From the IMG/VR virus record IMGVR_UViG_2713897054_000020: a stretch of 9,715 nt of DNA. One strand, written 5' to 3'. Below the pieces are notes generated by a model that saw nothing but the letters and a program-made list of their open reading frames with translations, was not told the DNA's origin and did not search any database. Shown here in pieces: positions 538 to 9,715 of this stretch. Position numbers and translations under genes: made by a program. The DNA is from a virus. Its lineage: Duplodnaviria > Heunggongvirae > Uroviricota > Caudoviricetes. The stretch's first letter is position 1; every line of letters starts with the position of its first letter.

Positions 538-1080
538 TTACTCGCCTTTCTTCTGTAGTAACTTCTCCGGTACGTCTCCGGTAGTTTCCATCAGGTAATC
601 AGCCAGTATCTGCGGGAGGTTGTCAGCAACTCCTGCGCAAGCATTACAGGCTTTAACCACTTCCTTTTTAAGTCCATCCAGCATAGCGGGGGTCATCTGT
701 GGGAAGCTCCTTTGCATAGTAAGCGGGAGGCTGTCCATGATTGATGAAATCTGACTCGCCAGTTTTGAAAGCGCGTACATGCAAAACTCTGTATCAATCA
801 CGTCACCGCGATCGCGCTCGTTTTTAAGTTCCTGCGCCTCTGCCTGTGCTGTCAGTAATCTGATCCTGACTCGTAAAAGTTCATCATCATCAATCTCACC
901 TTTGCCGTTTGTAAGCTGGCTAATTGCATTGTTAACCCTATTGTCTATCACGCTGGCAACATCATAAAACGCCTCACGGCCTTTACGCTCAACGGGAGTT
1001 ACTCCCCACTTGTCGAACGCTGTCGCACTTACACGGCAGCTTTTAGCCATGTTTTTTTTGTTCATCAGGTGCGATTTCAT
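538..1080 (-). CDS. small terminase (lambda Nu1) homologue; likely Rpp-type packaging-redirection protein of cos-type PICIs
   Basis: 180-aa ORF. The C-terminal two thirds align with lambda Nu1 (RLLTAQAEAQELKNERD...DTEFCMYALSKLASQISSIMDSLPLTMQRSFP versus Nu1 RLTRAQADAQELKNARD...ETAFCTFVLSRIAGEIASILDGLPLSVQRRFP). The N-terminal DNA-binding region is diverged (NKKNMAKSCRVSATAFDKW versus NKKQLADIFGASIRTIQNW). Flanked by cos sites. The start could be the ATG at 1080 or the in-frame ATG at codon 6 or 11. Confidence 0.85.
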   Translation of the reverse strand: MKSHLMNKKNMAKSCRVSATAFDKWGVTPVERKGREAFYDVASVIDNRVNNAISQLTNGKGEIDDDELLRVRIRLLTAQAEAQELKNERDRGDVIDTEFCMYALSKLASQISSIMDSLPLTMQRSFPQMTPAMLDGLKKEVVKACNACAGVADNLPQILADYLMETTGDVPEKLLQKKGE

Positions 1081-1187
1081 TAATACACCAACTTAATTAC
1101 TGCTTCAGGTTGGTGTATTGCTTGCATCTTTCCCTTTTTATTCATAAAGATAGAGCAAACAACAAAACCACCACCACCACCCTGAAA

Positions 1188-1254
1188 AAGCTCATAAATA
1201 GCGAAAAACCGCGAGGTCGCCGCCCCGTAACGGTCCATATGCCGGAAAGGACCC
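1188..1254 (-). other. second cos-like site (cos-2), inverted relative to cos-1, upstream of the rpp-like gene
   Basis: 1209-1233 CCGCGAGGTCGCCGCCCCGTAACGG is the exact reverse complement of the cos-1 cosN 25-mer. About 65 bp is shared with cos-1 at roughly 85 percent identity, including the flank TTTTTCGCTATTTATGA on the minus strand, which matches lambda. Read on the minus strand the order is cosN, a cosB-like region, then the terminase-homologue gene, i.e. the lambda arrangement. Confidence 0.65.
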
Positions 1255-1256
1255 GT

Positions 1257-1279
1257 AAAAAAAGCCGGATTTCTCCGGC
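1257..1279 (-). terminator. rho-independent terminator after the capsid operon
   Basis: Stem GCCGGA (1264-1269) pairs with TCCGGC (1274-1279) around a 4-nt loop. An A7 run at 1257-1263 gives a U7 tail on the minus-strand transcript. Lies directly after the stop of the 137-aa gene (1285). Confidence 0.6.
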
Positions 1280-1284
1280 CTGTC

Positions 1285-1698
1285 TCAGATGGTTTTCAGT
1301 ATGCGATCGATGTCGCCGTCATCGCCCGGGTTTCTGCCATCGTATGCCATGCCAGCTGATACGGCTTGCGGGCTGTGCATGTCCATAAAGTTTTCAAAGG
1401 CTGCGGTAAGCTCCGGCGCAACCCTCGGACGTTCCTGCTCTATGGTCATGCTAAGGATGCTTTTAGCCGTACCAACATCGATACAAGGCACGTTTGCCAT
1501 TGCACGTAACAGCGGCTGATAGTCGCCAGATTCATCAAGCGCCATAATCGCATCAGCGCGCGGCTTGTCCTGCTCTTCCAGTTTGTTAAGTTGATATATG
1601 GCCTCGTAGGTTGATAACCCTCTGTCAGCCATTGCCCGCGCTTCGGCTTTAAATTTACTCGCCAGCGGTAGCGTCATGATGCTTTCATTCGTTGCCAT
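1285..1698 (-). CDS. hypothetical protein (137 aa), last gene of the capsid operon; possibly an assembly or scaffold-type factor
   Basis: Minus-strand ORF, ATG at 1698-1696, 12-nt gap after the gpD-like gene with a G-rich SD. Acidic, Ala-rich, predicted helical. No motif recognised; the scaffold suggestion rests on position only. Confidence 0.55.
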   Translation of the reverse strand: MATNESIMTLPLASKFKAEARAMADRGLSTYEAIYQLNKLEEQDKPRADAIMALDESGDYQPLLRAMANVPCIDVGTAKSILSMTIEQERPRVAPELTAAFENFMDMHSPQAVSAGMAYDGRNPGDDGDIDRILKTI

Positions 1699-3556: not shown

Positions 3557-3967
3557 TCAGAACGGAATATCATCACCGTAGGGGTCATCGTCTCCCGCTG
3601 GTGGCTGATTACCCTGTGCGCCTGTGGTTTTGCGTCTGTTCCCGCCAGGACGTGCCGCACGGGCACTGATTACGCTGTCTGCAATAACCTGATAACCCTG
3701 CCGCGTTTCCCCGTTCTGTCCGGTCCACTGGCTTATCTGCATCACGCCAGATATGCTGGCAACGTCGCCTTTTTGATGTTTAGCCAGGAAGTCGGCCTGC
3801 TTACCAAATGCCATCACCGATAGCCATAACGTAGCCGTTCCGTCATCTGCCTGGCTGCACGGAAGGGGGACCGCCATACGAGCCAGCGTCATTGGTGTGC
3901 CCTTGCTGGTCTGTTTTACCTGCGGGTCGTCCACCAGCCGCCCGTAAGCGGCTATCTGTGCCGTCAT
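3557..3967 (-). CDS. ssb: single-stranded DNA-binding protein
   Basis: 136 aa. OB-fold core blocks GRLVDDPQ and WLSVMAFGKQADFLAKHQKGDVASISG parallel E. coli SSB GNLGQDPE and [28 protein letters not shown]. Gly/Pro-rich linker and an acidic C-terminal tail ending DDIPF, as in SSB. The ATG overlaps the upstream stop (ATGA). Confidence 0.85.
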   Translation of the reverse strand: MTAQIAAYGRLVDDPQVKQTSKGTPMTLARMAVPLPCSQADDGTATLWLSVMAFGKQADFLAKHQKGDVASISGVMQISQWTGQNGETRQGYQVIADSVISARAARPGGNRRKTTGAQGNQPPAGDDDPYGDDIPF

Positions 3968-4233
3968 ACTGCCCCCTCTCCGGTTTTAACGTTGATGGTT
4001 GTTACCTGTTCCGCTTCGGCAATCTCCCGTTCTGTCAGCGTGGCAAAGTTTGCCGCTGCTGTGGTCATGAATGCGCTTATCAGGTCGGGATGTTCCTTCG
4101 CGTATCCTTCCCCCGCGTGGCGGTCTATTACCCTGATTGCTACCTTTAAGGCGTGCTCTGTCATGTCTAACGCTTTATATTTTGGCTCTGTTCTGTCTCT
4201 GCGCATTTTGGTTATCTCCTCACTCATGCTCAC
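3964..4233 (-). CDS. hypothetical protein (89 aa) between the origin and ssb
   Basis: ORF translationally coupled to ssb through an ATGA overlap. The start is either GTG at 4233 (SD GAGG 6 nt upstream) or ATG at 4227. No motif recognised. Confidence 0.5.
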   Translation of the reverse strand: MSMSEEITKMRRDRTEPKYKALDMTEHALKVAIRVIDRHAGEGYAKEHPDLISAFMTTAAANFATLTEREIAEAEQVTTINVKTGEGAV

Positions 4234-4420
4234 TTTTGCGCCTCACTTTTTAAAGAGTCTCGCTTCGTCTCACTTGATATTTTTGATGTTTTTATGTGCA
4301 TGTTTCATAAGGATTTTTTTACTCCTCACTTTTTGGGGTATATATACGTTGAAAAGTGAGGAGTTCAGGGGGTTTTTCGTTCAATTACTCATTGTCCTCA
4401 CTTTTGCGCCTCACTTTTTA
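4229..4420. repeat. putative replication origin: iteron array with an AT-rich inverted-repeat core
   Basis: Two perfect 24-bp direct repeats CTCACTTTTGCGCCTCACTTTTTA at 4229-4252 and 4397-4420. The sub-motif CTCACTT(TT) occurs at least six times on the plus strand and once inverted. A 12-bp inverted repeat CTCCTCACTTTT (4322-4333) / AAAAGTGAGGAG (4351-4362) flanks the AT-rich spacer TGGGGTATATATACGTTG. Sits immediately 3' of the replication helicase gene. Confidence 0.6.
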
Positions 4421-5827
4421 CAGAGGGCCTACATCATCACCGTCGATATAAATAACCCCGTCTTTTTCCAGCTTGCGTAGCCAGCGGCTGAAGTTTTTCA
4501 TTTCGTACCCCAGCTTTTTCATATCGTCACGTAACAGCGGGATCGTGCACTTGTCGCCGTGCTGTGTGCGTGACCGGATACATCCCCATAGCGCAGCATG
4601 ATTCTCCGTCTTGTTGCCAGCCTCTTCGATGCGCTCCAGTTCAACGGGAGGACGCGGCTTATCCACCACCACCAGCGACGTGATTAACTCCCCGTCAGCG
4701 TCGGTAAAAAGCTCCACCACCCGCAAATCATAGGCAGCCTCTTTGAGTTCCTCCGCGTCCTTCATTTTGGTGCATGAGATAACCAGCGCTTCGCTTCCTG
4801 CGTCCTCCCTGCGTATCCGGTATTCAGCGTCCAGTGATGCACGAAATGCACTGGAACCACGCGCCCCCTTTGTTTCATCCTTGCCGGAATGGTGAACCAC
4901 CAGCACCGTAGCCCCTGTGCGCCGTTTAAGCTCGTCACAACCACGGATAAATGCCCCCATGTCGCGGGAGTCATTTTCATCATTGCCGCCAAAGCAACGC
5001 GCCAGCGTGTCCAGAATAATCATGCGAACAGGTTTACCCGTTTCCCTCTCCACCTGACTGGCAGCAATAACCAGTTCATCAACATCAAGCGGGACAGCCG
5101 GAAAGATGGGACGGTTTACCAGATACAGATTTTTCACCTGCTCACCGTGCACAACCTCCCAGGCTTTTACACGACGCGGAACGCCGATACCGCCTTCACC
5201 AACCACATAGAGAACAGCGCCATGCGCCACCCTGCGGCCTCCCCACTGGCGGCCCGTGGAAACGTGACACGCCCACGATCCGGCAAGGAATGATTTATAG
5301 GAACCGCTCGCCCCGTATATGCTGCAAAGCGACGATGCCGGAATAATCCCCTTTACCACGTAATCAAGCTGTGTGTCGTATCCGGTAGATCCAACGCTCA
5401 TCGGTAGCGTGGTTTTTCGCTGGGGAATTTTTTTCATGACCAGGCTTTCCCCGCGTTCCCATGCCTCCCTAAGCCGTGGAAGCTGGTCGCTCCATTCCTC
5501 CAGCAATTCGAAATTTTCAGAAAGTAGCCGCGCCTCCTGGACTCCGGCGATCGCCAGTTTCGTGGCGATGGTTAACAGCTGCGGCTCTTCAATATTTCCG
5601 GCGCGTATCACCGTCGCCCTGTATCGCCCATCATCAACAATCTGGAGGTTATCCAGTTCGCTTAACTGATAACGCCCCAGATAAACGGGAGGGACTGGAT
5701 CGCCTGCTTTTTTGGCCTGTGCAATGATGTAATGCTCTGCGAATGAATGAGCATCAATACCCGCAAAAATAATCGCATCGGTGTATTTATCTTTCGGTAA
5801 TAGTTTTACGTTCGGTGCCAGTTTCAT
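4418..5827 (-). CDS. replication initiator/helicase, RepA/DnaB-like RecA-fold ATPase (AAA_25-type)
   Basis: 469 aa. P-loop-like GASGSYKS, Walker B-like VRMIILDTLARCFGG, and a helicase H4-type motif ATVLVVHHSGKD. An N-terminal domain of about 170 aa and a C-terminal domain of about 70 aa are unassigned. SD AGGGGT; the ATG overlaps the upstream stop (ATGA). Confidence 0.85.
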   Translation of the reverse strand: MKLAPNVKLLPKDKYTDAIIFAGIDAHSFAEHYIIAQAKKAGDPVPPVYLGRYQLSELDNLQIVDDGRYRATVIRAGNIEEPQLLTIATKLAIAGVQEARLLSENFELLEEWSDQLPRLREAWERGESLVMKKIPQRKTTLPMSVGSTGYDTQLDYVVKGIIPASSLCSIYGASGSYKSFLAGSWACHVSTGRQWGGRRVAHGAVLYVVGEGGIGVPRRVKAWEVVHGEQVKNLYLVNRPIFPAVPLDVDELVIAASQVERETGKPVRMIILDTLARCFGGNDENDSRDMGAFIRGCDELKRRTGATVLVVHHSGKDETKGARGSSAFRASLDAEYRIRREDAGSEALVISCTKMKDAEELKEAAYDLRVVELFTDADGELITSLVVVDKPRPPVELERIEEAGNKTENHAALWGCIRSRTQHGDKCTIPLLRDDMKKLGYEMKNFSRWLRKLEKDGVIYIDGDDVGPL

Positions 5828-6123
5828 TTTTTACCCCTGAATCCGTTAATCATTGTTTTCAGCTTCTGGATGTTTGCCCGTGCCCTGGCGTTGCTGGTGG
5901 GCACGTTATGCGGCGCGGTCTGTACCAGAGAAAAATCACGCCGGAACTGATAAACAGGCATCACGCAATCATATTCGTAACCTTCACGGCGGTAAGTTAC
6001 GCACCGTCCCGCCACGCCCTTAATCATTACCGTACCGCCGTACTGGTCGCGGTAAATATCACCGCGCGTAAATTTAGGGTGAGTGTTGCCACTGGCAGTT
6101 AAGCCAGAATATTTAAGCTTCAT
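5824..6123 (-). CDS. hypothetical protein (99 aa), basic, coupled to the replication gene
   Basis: SD GGAGAA 8 nt upstream of ATG 6123-6121. Its stop TGA overlaps the rep ATG. Basic C-terminal tail. No motif recognised. Confidence 0.55.
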   Translation of the reverse strand: MKLKYSGLTASGNTHPKFTRGDIYRDQYGGTVMIKGVAGRCVTYRREGYEYDCVMPVYQFRRDFSLVQTAPHNVPTSNARARANIQKLKTMINGFRGKK

Positions 6124-6858: not shown

Positions 6859-7095
6859 AACCGGACGGGCAACGGCTACGCGCTTCGCGTTCCGTCCAGG
6901 CGGTTACGTGGATGATTTGAGATTCTCCGGCACTCAGTGCCAGAAAACGCCACACAAAGGCCGTTTGTGTGTGTACAAGGTGTGGTATATGATTTACAGC
7001 AACCATAACGGCTCCTAGTTTACGTTGTTGGTTAGAAGCCCCGTTACTGCTCCTACAGTGCGGGGTTTCGTCGTTTCTACACCTTGCCTTAATAA

Positions 7096-7148
7096 GGTGT
7101 TGAACACCAATTTAAATCGAGGTGTTAAACACGTCAAGTGTTGAACAC
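7096..7148. promoter_or_regulatory. operator array: three copies of a palindromic site GTGTT(G/A)AACAC
   Basis: GTGTTGAACAC at 7097-7107, GTGTTAAACAC at 7122-7132 and GTGTTGAACAC at 7138-7148. The third overlaps a putative plus-strand -35 TTGAAC (7141-7146); a -10 candidate CATACT lies at 7164-7169. The array sits between the divergent leftward operon and the RHH gene. Confidence 0.55.
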
Positions 7149-7198
7149 TTATTTTTTTTCCTGCATACTGCATTTGTTTTTTATGAGGGGTGCTCAAC

Positions 7199-7378
7199 AT
7201 GGCGACAAAAGCAGTAAACGCAAAATCACAAACAGTTGCGGCAAGGGTTCCACATGAAGTTATGAACAATGTTGAGGCGGTAAAAATGCCCGGCGAAAGT
7301 ACAGGGCAGTTTGTTACAGCTGCATTAAAGCGGGAAGTTGAATACCGCCAGCGCCGCAAGACCAAAGAATCAGAATAA
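7199..7378 (+). CDS. small ribbon-helix-helix (Arc/CopG-like) DNA-binding protein, putative repressor
   Basis: ATG at 7199 with SD GAGGGG 8 nt upstream (the track start at 7190 is a GTG inside the SD). The N-terminal pattern QTVAARVPHEVMNNVEA followed by GESTGQFVTAALKREVE fits a beta-strand/helix/helix RHH fold. Lies directly downstream of the operator array. Confidence 0.6.
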   Translation: MATKAVNAKSQTVAARVPHEVMNNVEAVKMPGESTGQFVTAALKREVEYRQRRKTKESE

Positions 7379-7435
7379 TCACCATCAGCGCCGTGGTGTG
7401 AGGAACTCCGGCGCATTGCTTTACAGGAACACACA

Positions 7436-7639
7436 ATGACCAACAAAGAATCAACCAATACACCATCGCAAAAAACGAACAGAGAGCACGAAAATATGGC
7501 GCTCGAGCATGAATCAGAAAGATTCGCACCATGCGCTTTTGTCCTTGATGAGTTTCTAAAAAAATATTCACGTTCTGAACGGATGAAAATGGCAGCACAA
7601 TACGGCCCCAACAAGCAAGATAATTGCCCACCAGCCTGA
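7436..7639 (+). CDS. hypothetical small protein (67 aa), uncertain
   Basis: ORF downstream of the RHH gene on the same strand with a weak AGGAA SD, followed by a plus-strand terminator-like hairpin. Polar, low-complexity N-terminus. Could instead be untranslated. Confidence 0.35.
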   Translation: MTNKESTNTPSQKTNREHENMALEHESERFAPCAFVLDEFLKKYSRSERMKMAAQYGPNKQDNCPPA

Positions 7640-7709
7640 TCGCGGTTATCATGCCCGGGCTTATGATTGTTGACACATACGGCGCAGCGGGTTAATTGTT
7701 CAGAAAGGT

Positions 7710-7735
7710 GGCTCCATTTCGGGGCCGCTTTTTTT
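7710..7735 (+). terminator. putative intrinsic terminator of the RHH operon
   Basis: Stem GGCTCC (7710-7715) pairs with GGGGCC (7721-7726) with one G-U pair, then GC and a T7 run (7729-7735). Confidence 0.4.
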
Positions 7736-7760
7736 ATGTTCATCATTTGCCCTATATATG

Positions 7761-7967
7761 TTAAGCGGTCGTTCCGCGCGCTTTTTGTTCGCGTTCTTTC
7801 ATCCATGCGATTACGTCTTCCTCATACCATCCGCGACGGCGCAAACCGACACGAAAACCCTGCGGGAATTCTCCGGCGTTGATCATGCTTTGCAGCGTGC
7901 TGTCTGCCTTAATGTGGATAAGTTTTTTTACTTCCTGGCGAAAGATGACTTTTTTGATTGCTTCCAT
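7761..7967 (-). CDS. alpA: AlpA-family (excisionase-like HTH) transcriptional regulator
   Basis: 68 aa. SD GAGGT 8 nt upstream of ATG 7967-7965. Sequence block STLQSMINAGEFPQGFRVGLRRRGWYEEDVIAWM follows the AlpA/Xis MerR-like HTH pattern (S.ST, G.FP, G.R, W, DV, W). Confidence 0.8.
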   Translation of the reverse strand: MEAIKKVIFRQEVKKLIHIKADSTLQSMINAGEFPQGFRVGLRRRGWYEEDVIAWMKEREQKARGTTA

Positions 7968-8473: not shown

Positions 8474-9715
8474 CTAAACGGCTCGGATACCCCTTTTACC
8501 ACTGGCGAGGGTTACGCCCGTCGCCGCAGCCTCGACAAATTCGCCCCACCAGCGCATAAGCACGATGCGTTTTTCTATGTAGTTGCTCCGGTTGTATGCC
8601 CGTCTGACTTCGTTGGTGTCGACGTGGGCAAGTGCGGCCTCTATTACGTCTGGCTCAAAGCCTTCTTCGTTCGCTGCTGTGCTGAATATGGCGCGTAATC
8701 CATGAGACACCAGCACGCCAGCGAATCCCATGCGTCGTAATGCTGCGTTAGCGGTCTGGCTGTTCATCGGCTGCTGTGGGTCTTTCAGACTCGGGAAAAC
8801 ATAATCGCGGTGGTGGCTGATTGGTTTCATAGCCTCCAGCACTGCCATAGCCTGGTCACAAAGCGGGATAACGTGGTCGCGGCGCATCTTCATGCGTCCG
8901 GCGGGTATGGTCCAGCGTTGCGCTTCCATGTCGATTTCTTCCCAGCGTGCCGACGATGCTTCAACGGGACGGGTTACGGTCAGTAACTGCCATTCAATCA
9001 GTAATCTGGTCTGCCGTTCTGTTGCCGATACTGATAAAGCCTGCATAAGCTCCGGCAGCTGTTCGGGGCGGATTGTTGGCATATGTTTTTTTACAGGGGA
9101 GGGGAACGCCTTACGCACATTCATAGCCGGATTGGCATCAATCATCCCACTATTGGCGGCGTAATCCATTACCTCATTTATACGCTGTAAAACTCGCTTG
9201 AGCGTTTCCAGGTTGCCACGTTCCTTGATGGGGGTAAGCACCTCAACGAACCTGCGAGCGGTCAGGGTGTCTATTGGCGTGTTGCCGATGAACGGGAATA
9301 CATATTTTTCCAGCGATCGCCAGATGTCTTTAATCGTATTGGGGGCCAGATTCTGGCTGATTTTCACCTGGTACCATGCTGTTGCCACATTTTCGAACGT
9401 GTTCCCTTGTCTTCGGGCCTCTGTCTCTCTTTTTTGCCTCTCGTGGTCCTGCGGGTCAGTTCCGGCACGAATTAACGCCCTGTACTCGCTACGGCGTTTT
9501 CTGGCATCAGCCAGGGAAACATCATCAAGCGATCCAAAACTCAGCAATATTCTTTTTTTGTCCGATGGTCGGTAGTAGGAAAATCTCCAGAGTTTTGATC
9601 CGGACGGTTTGATCAGGAGAAAAAGCCCTCCGCCGTCCTGTAGGGTGTATTCCTTTTCTGCTGGTCTGGCTGCTTTGATCTGTACTGTGGTTAATGGGGG
9701 TGTTTTTCTCGCCAT
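8474..9715 (-). CDS. int: tyrosine site-specific integrase, P4/CP4-57 family
   Basis: 413 aa. The N-terminal arm-binding region LTTVQIKAARPAEKEYTLQDGGGLFLLIKPSGSKLWRFSYY matches the P4-type integrase pattern (DGGGLYL..KP.GSK.WRF.Y). The C-terminal catalytic region carries HGLRA, HVIPLC and a late RRAYNRSNY segment that probably holds the catalytic Tyr. The ATG is the last three bases of the window, so the promoter and attachment site lie outside it. Confidence 0.9.
   Translation of the reverse strand: MARKTPPLTTVQIKAARPAEKEYTLQDGGGLFLLIKPSGSKLWRFSYYRPSDKKRILLSFGSLDDVSLADARKRRSEYRALIRAGTDPQDHERQKRETEARRQGNTFENVATAWYQVKISQNLAPNTIKDIWRSLEKYVFPFIGNTPIDTLTARRFVEVLTPIKERGNLETLKRVLQRINEVMDYAANSGMIDANPAMNVRKAFPSPVKKHMPTIRPEQLPELMQALSVSATERQTRLLIEWQLLTVTRPVEASSARWEEIDMEAQRWTIPAGRMKMRRDHVIPLCDQAMAVLEAMKPISHHRDYVFPSLKDPQQPMNSQTANAALRRMGFAGVLVSHGLRAIFSTAANEEGFEPDVIEAALAHVDTNEVRRAYNRSNYIEKRIVLMRWWGEFVEAAATGVTLASGKRGIRAV

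Follow-up and report, generated by a model that had tools for sequence, protein, structure and literature searches.

Where does a phage satellite of Escherichia coli begin to replicate, and which part of its own initiator would recognize that site? These questions arise from a gap between two genes in a 9,715 nt stretch of viral DNA (the whole of which is termed the window), where short repeats lie directly downstream of a helicase gene. The original prediction, made from the sequence alone, read this gap as a satellite replication origin. We followed up this reading by examining the repeats, the helicase that precedes them and the equivalent loci of related islands.

The window is a phage-inducible chromosomal island

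The window is a phage satellite, namely a Gram-negative phage-inducible chromosomal island (PICI) of the EcCICFT073 family of E. coli. Its genes, most of which lie on the minus strand, run in the order int, AlpA-like, Icd-like, DUF4222, rep, a gap, a small gene, ssb, capsid, decoration and small terminase (TerS), and this order is that of EcCICFT073 in strain CFT073, the prototype Gram-negative PICI. An integrase, AlpA, a one-directional operon, a size of ~10 kb, an attachment site and synteny with EcCICFT073 together provide the context of a PICI. The genes of most concern here are as follows.

8474-9715: integrase, first in the order of island genes
7761-7967: AlpA-like regulator
5824-6123: DUF4222 gene
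4418-5827, minus strand: rep, encoding a 469-aa RepA-family (AAA_25, RecA-fold) helicase, the predicted initiator
3964-4233, minus strand: small downstream gene of the phrog_1231 family
3557-3967: ssb, following the small phrog_1231 gene

The island also encodes a lambda-E-like capsid protein, a decoration protein and a Nu1-like TerS. Between the decoration gene and TerS, a minus-strand gene (1285-1698) encodes a 137-aa protein that matches the C-terminal part of the phrog_53 head-maturation protease (E = 2e-8) and appears to resemble a lambda Nu3-like scaffold. If so, the island would carry capsid, decoration, scaffold-like and TerS genes, and no portal or large terminase. Elsewhere, a 263-aa minus-strand reading frame at 7015-7806 is probably spurious. 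RefSeq annotates two short plus-strand genes there (7190-7378, YlcI/YnfO family; 7436-7639, hypothetical), and this stretch would therefore be transcribed against the rest of the island.

Positions 4100-4520 are 100% identical to a chromosomal island adjoining tRNA-Pro in E. coli O91 strain RM7190 (locus L001, 18.4 kb, comprising the whole island and its flanks). Despite this identity the window is not an exact copy, because its coordinates are offset by one base from those of L001 between the TerS gene and the next gene (window 1080-1285). Related sequence was found in 871 of 5426 complete E. coli genomes, some of which have up to 4-6 places that match the region (for example NZ_CP077491, with 5). 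If incompatibility is avoided, islands that share a genome would be predicted to differ in iteron class.

A single repeat cluster fills the gap after rep

Two identical 24-bp direct repeats built from a 9-mer, the second overlapping the rep stop codon, had been the basis for proposing an origin, and all of these elements were confirmed. The sequence CTCACTTTTGCGCCTCACTTTTTA is identical at 4229-4252 and 4397-4420, an offset of 168 bp, and its second copy runs into the TAA stop codon at 4418-4420. The 9-mer CTCACTTTT occurs in six perfect copies, all inside 4229-4418, at positions 4229, 4242, 4325, 4352 (inverted), 4397 and 4410. Degenerate copies lie in the rep-distal part of the cluster at 4219 (CTCACTCAT), 4259 (CTCGCTTCG) and 4269 (CTCACTTGA), and a further one is present at ~4388.

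This clustering is not expected by chance. Neither the rest of the window nor the 18.4-kb L001 locus contains another copy of the 9-mer outside the cluster; the number of copies expected by chance in L001 is 0.14, and the observed count was matched in none of 200 shuffles. Similarly, 8 occurrences of the 5-bp core CTCAC/GTGAG fall within 205 bp, and the other 9.5 kb contains 11 (binomial p = 2e-9). Its density in the cluster is ~34 times that of the remainder of the window, and outside 4216-4420 it occurs at background density. The parts of the predicted origin are listed below.

4216-4420, minus strand: whole predicted origin, intergenic from the rep stop codon to the small downstream gene; the only iteron cluster of the island
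4388-4420, minus strand: rep-proximal iteron array, with direct copies at 4410-4418 and 4397-4405 and a degenerate copy at ~4388-4393
4321-4364, no strand assigned: palindrome, with opposed iterons at 4325-4333 and 4352-4360 and 12-bp arms around GGGGTATATATACGTTG
4275-4320, no strand assigned: AT-rich stretch, T-rich on the plus strand, between the palindrome and the distal array
4219-4277, minus strand: rep-distal iteron array, with perfect copies at 4229-4237 and 4242-4250 and a spacing of 10-17 bp

On the gene strand the rep-proximal copies read AAAAGTGAG(G), and the last of them abuts the rep stop codon. Within any one origin, the two terminal double units tend to share a 4-bp spacer between their iterons, yet islands differ from one another in this spacer (GCGC/GCGC in the window, ACTA/ACTA in L003). 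Such matching suggests either homogenisation of the two origin ends or a functional 24-bp double site.

An AT-rich core had also been placed between 12-bp inverted repeats. The arms are indeed perfectly complementary (CTCCTCACTTTT at 4322-4333 and AAAAGTGAGGAG at 4352-4363), but the AT-rich sequence lies beside them and not inside: the 18 bp that separate the arms reach just 61% AT, and the highest AT content, 78%, is found at 4275-4320, between the distal array and the inverted repeat. No indels were seen in this stretch in the five E. coli variants with full coverage of it, and we predict that it is the DNA-unwinding element. The hairpin formed by the palindrome is retained in the centroid fold and conserved in six E. 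coli variants, and the palindrome is a candidate loading site for two opposed helicase rings. We considered the palindrome as an intrinsic terminator for rep and rejected this role, because an A-run and not a U-run comes next on the gene strand. Scans for other signals revealed no minus-strand terminator, no sigma-70-like promoter on either strand of 4100-4550 and no DnaA box within 4216-4420.

Whether the first 24-bp repeat overlaps the downstream gene, as had been proposed, depends on the start codon of that gene. The overlap exists only if translation begins at GTG 4233, and it is lost if a likelier ATG is used. In all phrog_1231 relatives the gene starts at the position corresponding to window 4215 (4215-4213). 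This island has ATA there in place of the canonical ATG, and the RefSeq annotation nevertheless begins at it. The start is more likely ATG 4227 or ATG 4206, the latter being preceded by GAGGAG. Alternatively, the small gene may be poorly translated.

The cluster occupies the position of the EcCICFT073 origin

The closest known system is EcCICFT073 itself (Fillol-Salom et al., 2018; PMC6092414). According to that report, pri-rep together with its 3′ region supported plasmid replication, deletion of the ori lowered replication, and Gram-negative PICI origins consist of two iteron sets flanking an AT-rich region. Induction by a helper phage has likewise been shown for EcCICFT073. The window matches this description in that the array begins at the rep stop codon and fills the gap to the next gene, and in that two iteron sets (the proximal copies at 4388-4420 plus the palindrome, and the distal copies at 4219-4277) surround the AT-rich sequence at 4275-4320. 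Island family, gene order, the location directly 3′ of the initiator gene and unidirectional transcription through the region are also shared with EcCICFT073.

Iteron origins located 3′ of a PICI initiator are already known from the literature; the island described here is a further member, with a RepA-type initiator and its own iteron. EcCICFT073 uses a D5-type primase-helicase, whereas the window encodes a 469-aa RepA-type superfamily-4 helicase with a predicted winged helix and no primase domain. Likewise, the iteron is GGTAGAYAG there and AAAAGTGAG(G) here. 

Rep joins a RecA-fold helicase core to a predicted winged helix

The helicase core of Rep matches Pfam AAA_25 (E = 3e-43) and has intact Walker motifs (Walker A, GASGSYKS; Walker B, MIILD). 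Residues 153-323 match RSF1010 RepA (PDB 1g8y; E = 0.01), the sole match among solved structures, and no D5 domains were found in a domain search. Rep is also without the zinc ribbon and Toprim primase borne by longer relatives. Many of the relatives in other genera are ~680 aa in length and carry these domains ahead of the same core, in place of the N-terminal domain of Rep. This domain (aa 1-135; window 5423-5827) has an alpha/beta fold with a pLDDT of ~90 and gave no family match. It exists in two allelic forms, ~43% identical, that are shuffled independently of the C-terminal domain, and is possibly a degenerate Toprim or a primase-recruiting domain.

The C-terminal domain is encoded immediately next to the repeats.

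4421-4615, minus strand: part of rep coding for the predicted C-terminal winged helix (aa 405-469)

In an AlphaFold model based on 24 homologues, residues 405-469 have a pLDDT of 87-92 and form helices at 408-422, 429-438 and 446-455 followed by a beta hairpin, an arrangement predicted to be a winged helix. The recognition helix of this fold would be the third, FSRWLRKLEK (446-455), which is directly preceded and capped by Asn445 (codon 4493-4495). When a single-sequence model of residues 405-469 was used for a fold search, the top matches were winged-helix domains only (TM ~0.6, with weak E values of ~0.05), including the MCM8 winged helix, MepR, IdeR/DtxR and the archaeal MCM C-terminus. Full-length Rep returned only generic RecA-fold and alpha/beta matches, because its core was poorly modelled.

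Initiator and repeats are exchanged as a cassette

Comparison of syntenic E. coli islands revealed that the initiator and the intergenic region are swapped as a unit, and that the flanking genes are kept, with DUF4222 on the upstream side and the small gene plus ssb on the downstream side. In a distant search, homology ended at window ~4210-4215. Each initiator class carries its own dense repeat set.

RepA helicase: C(T/C)CACTTTT (window, L002-L006)
DUF927 protein with a Cch-type HTH: TGCGGGTTA, at least 12 copies (L007)
D5-type primase-helicase: GGTAGAYAG (L008, L009, CFT073)
D5-type primase-helicase: GGTGAACA, nine copies in the slot (L010)

The slots of the syntenic PICIs lie at L007:3753-4122, L008:3780-4066, L010:3747-4033 and L013:23997-24284. 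The L010 repeat GGTGAACA is the type 1 repeat of phage P4, as given, together with ori and crr, in the annotated P4 record. The small gene and ssb are 85-92% conserved beside unrelated iterons and so do not set iteron specificity. An identical DUF4222 protein (WP_000770163.1) accompanies CTCAC, CCCAC and GGTAGAYAG arrays. Hence, one island slot takes initiator-plus-origin cassettes of at least three helicase-initiator domain classes. This three-way exchange is a new detail, as far as the literature searched shows.

Iteron sequence covaries with a residue of the Rep C-terminal domain

Within the RepA-type class, the repeats of six E. coli variants change in concert. The window and L002 have CTCAC in all copies, and L003-L006 have CCCAC in all copies. 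The only column of the Rep alignment that separates these groups is residue 445, which is Asn in the former and His in the latter. This split does not follow simple ancestry. Over residues 1-410 the Rep proteins of L006 and the window share 98-99% identity, yet L006 carries H445 with CCCAC. Conversely, the N-domain of the L002 Rep is 43% identical to that of the window, yet this protein carries N445 with CTCAC.

We extended the comparison to other genera by taking one genome per species, which gave 80 loci from ~20 genera, and by scanning the 342 bp after each stop codon. Among loci of the Enterobacterales that carry a dominant repeat, the base most often found after AGTG tracks the residue equivalent to Asn445, located before Phe in the motif K-x-F-x-R-W, in 68 of 68 cases, such that Asn is paired with A, His or Lys with G, and Ser with C. 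No exceptions to this rule were found among loci with at least three copies, and the residue has switched at least nine times on the helicase-core tree. Fewer than three copies of the dominant AGTGNNN word are present in the first 342 bp at 24 of 79 cross-genus loci, some of which are decayed elements or have the array elsewhere. A fifth class, with Gly at this position, was noticed afterwards and fetched as an out-of-sample case; its repeat is AAGTGCGCG and its layout is the same.

The layout itself is kept in E. coli, Xenorhabdus, Serratia, Pectobacterium, Morganella and Kosakonia while the repeat sequence changes. Two or three direct copies at +3, +16 and +25 from the stop codon are followed by an inverted pair at ~+57 and ~+88, then by an AT-rich stretch, and then by a further three to five copies in direct orientation between +144 and +194. 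The members of the inverted pair are ~30 bp apart in the mapped cross-genus loci. The other window genes compared (small gene, SSB, DUF4222, capsid and TerS) are missing at 78-80 of the 80 loci from other genera. Across genera the repeat array travels with the helicase core and the C-terminal domain of Rep; the N-terminal domain differs.

These comparisons support the view that the repeats behave as initiator-specific iterons, which covary with the C-terminal domain of Rep and with no other nearby feature. The covariation predicts that this domain binds the 9-mer, as the original prediction had suggested. As far as sequence comparison can establish, the covariation shows that this domain and the repeats form a unit. 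However, the C-terminal codons of rep and the iterons adjoin one another on the DNA, and recombination tracts will therefore carry both. The covariation thus partly reflects linkage and does not by itself establish a contact between residue 445 and a base. In addition, the classes differ at other residues of the helix region (R-K-S/G versus M-K-N/H, for example), and specificity may not depend on residue 445 alone.

A tentative proposal, to which we give somewhat less than even odds, is that origin choice in this widespread family of helicase-initiators is largely set by the N-cap residue of the recognition helix, with Asn reading A, His or Lys reading G, and Ser or Gly reading C at the fifth position of AGTGN. 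Such a one-residue rule predicts that Rep prefers AAAAGTGAGG over AAAAGTGGGG and that this preference is swapped in an N445H variant. The correspondence between residue and base is also a new detail, to the extent that the literature searched covers it.

Alternative roles for the repeats

The repeats could serve as operators for the small gene, ssb and capsid operon, at which a regulator, possibly Rep, controls transcription and not replication. The array does lie directly upstream of the next gene, its distal copies reach the ribosome-binding region, and the motif GTGAGG resembles a Shine-Dalgarno sequence, but 170 bp separate that gene from half of the array, which adjoins the rep stop codon. 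Moreover, the same array follows rep in other genera despite unrelated downstream genes, and no sigma-70-like promoter was found from 4100 to 4550. We consider a purely regulatory function unlikely on these grounds. Autoregulation by an initiator through its own binding sites is common among iteron replicons. A regulatory side role is compatible with origin function, and the repeats may have a secondary role of this type.

The presence of a single cluster bears on a second alternative, which is that the repeats form a cis-acting replication enhancer like P4 crr, where Rep would bind while initiation takes place at a second site in the island. In P4, crr with its type 1 repeats lies directly 3′ of the alpha gene, and the annotated ori is 4.5 kb away. 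However, the island and its flanks hold no second cluster and no further CTCACTTTT, and the core stays at background outside 4216-4420, which renders an auxiliary site of this sort very unlikely. Parts expected at a melting site, namely an AT-rich stretch and an inverted pair of iterons, are also present in the region, and the equivalent EcCICFT073 region works as an ori (PMC6092414).

Least probable, and in our view hardly worth entertaining, is that the repeats are a packaging signal or sites for the DUF4222 or small downstream protein: a Nu1-like TerS is among the island's products and the cosB site of lambda is made up of repeated Nu1 sites, but the repeat sequence tracks the predicted Rep winged helix, and the DUF4222 protein, small protein, SSB and TerS were each rejected as the repeat-binding factor, being conserved beside unrelated arrays or, like the capsid gene, missing from nearly all other-genus loci that keep the array.

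The reading of the gap as a satellite origin is thus upheld by its location in the slot of the mapped EcCICFT073 ori, by the concerted change of the repeats, by their covariation with Rep and by the layout kept across genera. We conclude that 4216-4420 is very probably the replication origin of this EcCICFT073-family island.

Relation to other replication systems

The origin and its initiator resemble those of the S. aureus pathogenicity islands (Ubeda et al., 2007; Qiao et al., 2022; PMC9371898). SaPI Rep has a C-terminal winged helix and no loader, and 6-12 iterons with an AT-rich centre come right after rep (PMC9371898). Both systems feature a helicase-initiator, for which self-loading and a C-terminal winged helix that reads iterons are described in SaPIs and predicted here, and short iterons that follow the rep reading frame, surround an AT-rich centre and include opposite orientations on either side. 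However, the SaPI motor is an AAA+ helicase of 3′-5′ polarity that is not homologous to the RecA-fold AAA_25 core of the island Rep, in which no SaPI-type AAA+ (superfamily 3/MCM-like) core is found. Most copies in the island are direct, with a single inverted pair. Because the motors belong to different superfamilies, the likeness to SaPIs is one of function and not of family membership.

Phage P4 is another satellite of enterobacterial phages whose initiator-helicase binds short repeats through its C-terminal domain and whose iteron region lies directly 3′ of the initiator gene. P4 differs in having two separate cis sites (ori and crr), whereas this island has one cluster, and its alpha protein is a D5/superfamily-3 primase-helicase. 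The island does not belong with P4 ori/crr, as Rep has no D5 domains, the cluster is single and the P4 repeat TGTTCACC is absent from the window.

The helicase core of Rep is homologous to RepA of the IncQ plasmid RSF1010. RSF1010 RepA and T7 gp4, whose cores are of this kind, move 5′-3′. In RSF1010 three proteins share the work of replication: RepC binds the iterons, RepA is the helicase and RepB′ is the primase. The island, by contrast, encodes no primase and is predicted to combine iteron reading and helicase activity in a single protein. Classical iteron plasmids of the pPS10, RK2 and F type rely on a two-winged-helix initiator without a helicase, on DnaA boxes and on the loading of host DnaB. 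The island falls outside this group, its initiator having its own helicase core and 4216-4420 having no DnaA box.

A model for initiation and its implications

From these features we infer a pathway in which Rep binds, melts and loads itself onto the origin. On induction of the island, the 469-aa Rep would be made, consisting of a RepA/DnaB-like (superfamily 4) helicase motor and the C-terminal winged helix. The winged helix would read AAAAGTGAG(G), with Asn445 reading the A at the fifth position of GTGAG. Rep assembled on the two direct arrays and the central inverted pair would then melt the adjacent AT-rich stretch and load itself as a ring helicase on the single strands, with neither a DnaA box nor a separate loader. 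Since Rep is without a primase domain, host primase is a likely source of primers, although priming by the host is our guess.

The general design of such origins was already known, and the gain is in detail rather than in principle. An origin can now be placed for a satellite family found in about one-sixth of complete E. coli genomes, including many Shiga-toxin-producing strains. In this island the iteron sequence is predictable from a single amino acid of its helicase. If the one-residue rule is true, a single substitution with a concerted change of the iterons would create a new replicon that does not cross-react with the old. Several related islands could then share one cell, and the design of orthogonal origins would follow a simple rule. 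The correspondence between residue and base therefore offers a testable prediction on the evolution of replicon specificity and on the compatibility of co-resident satellites.
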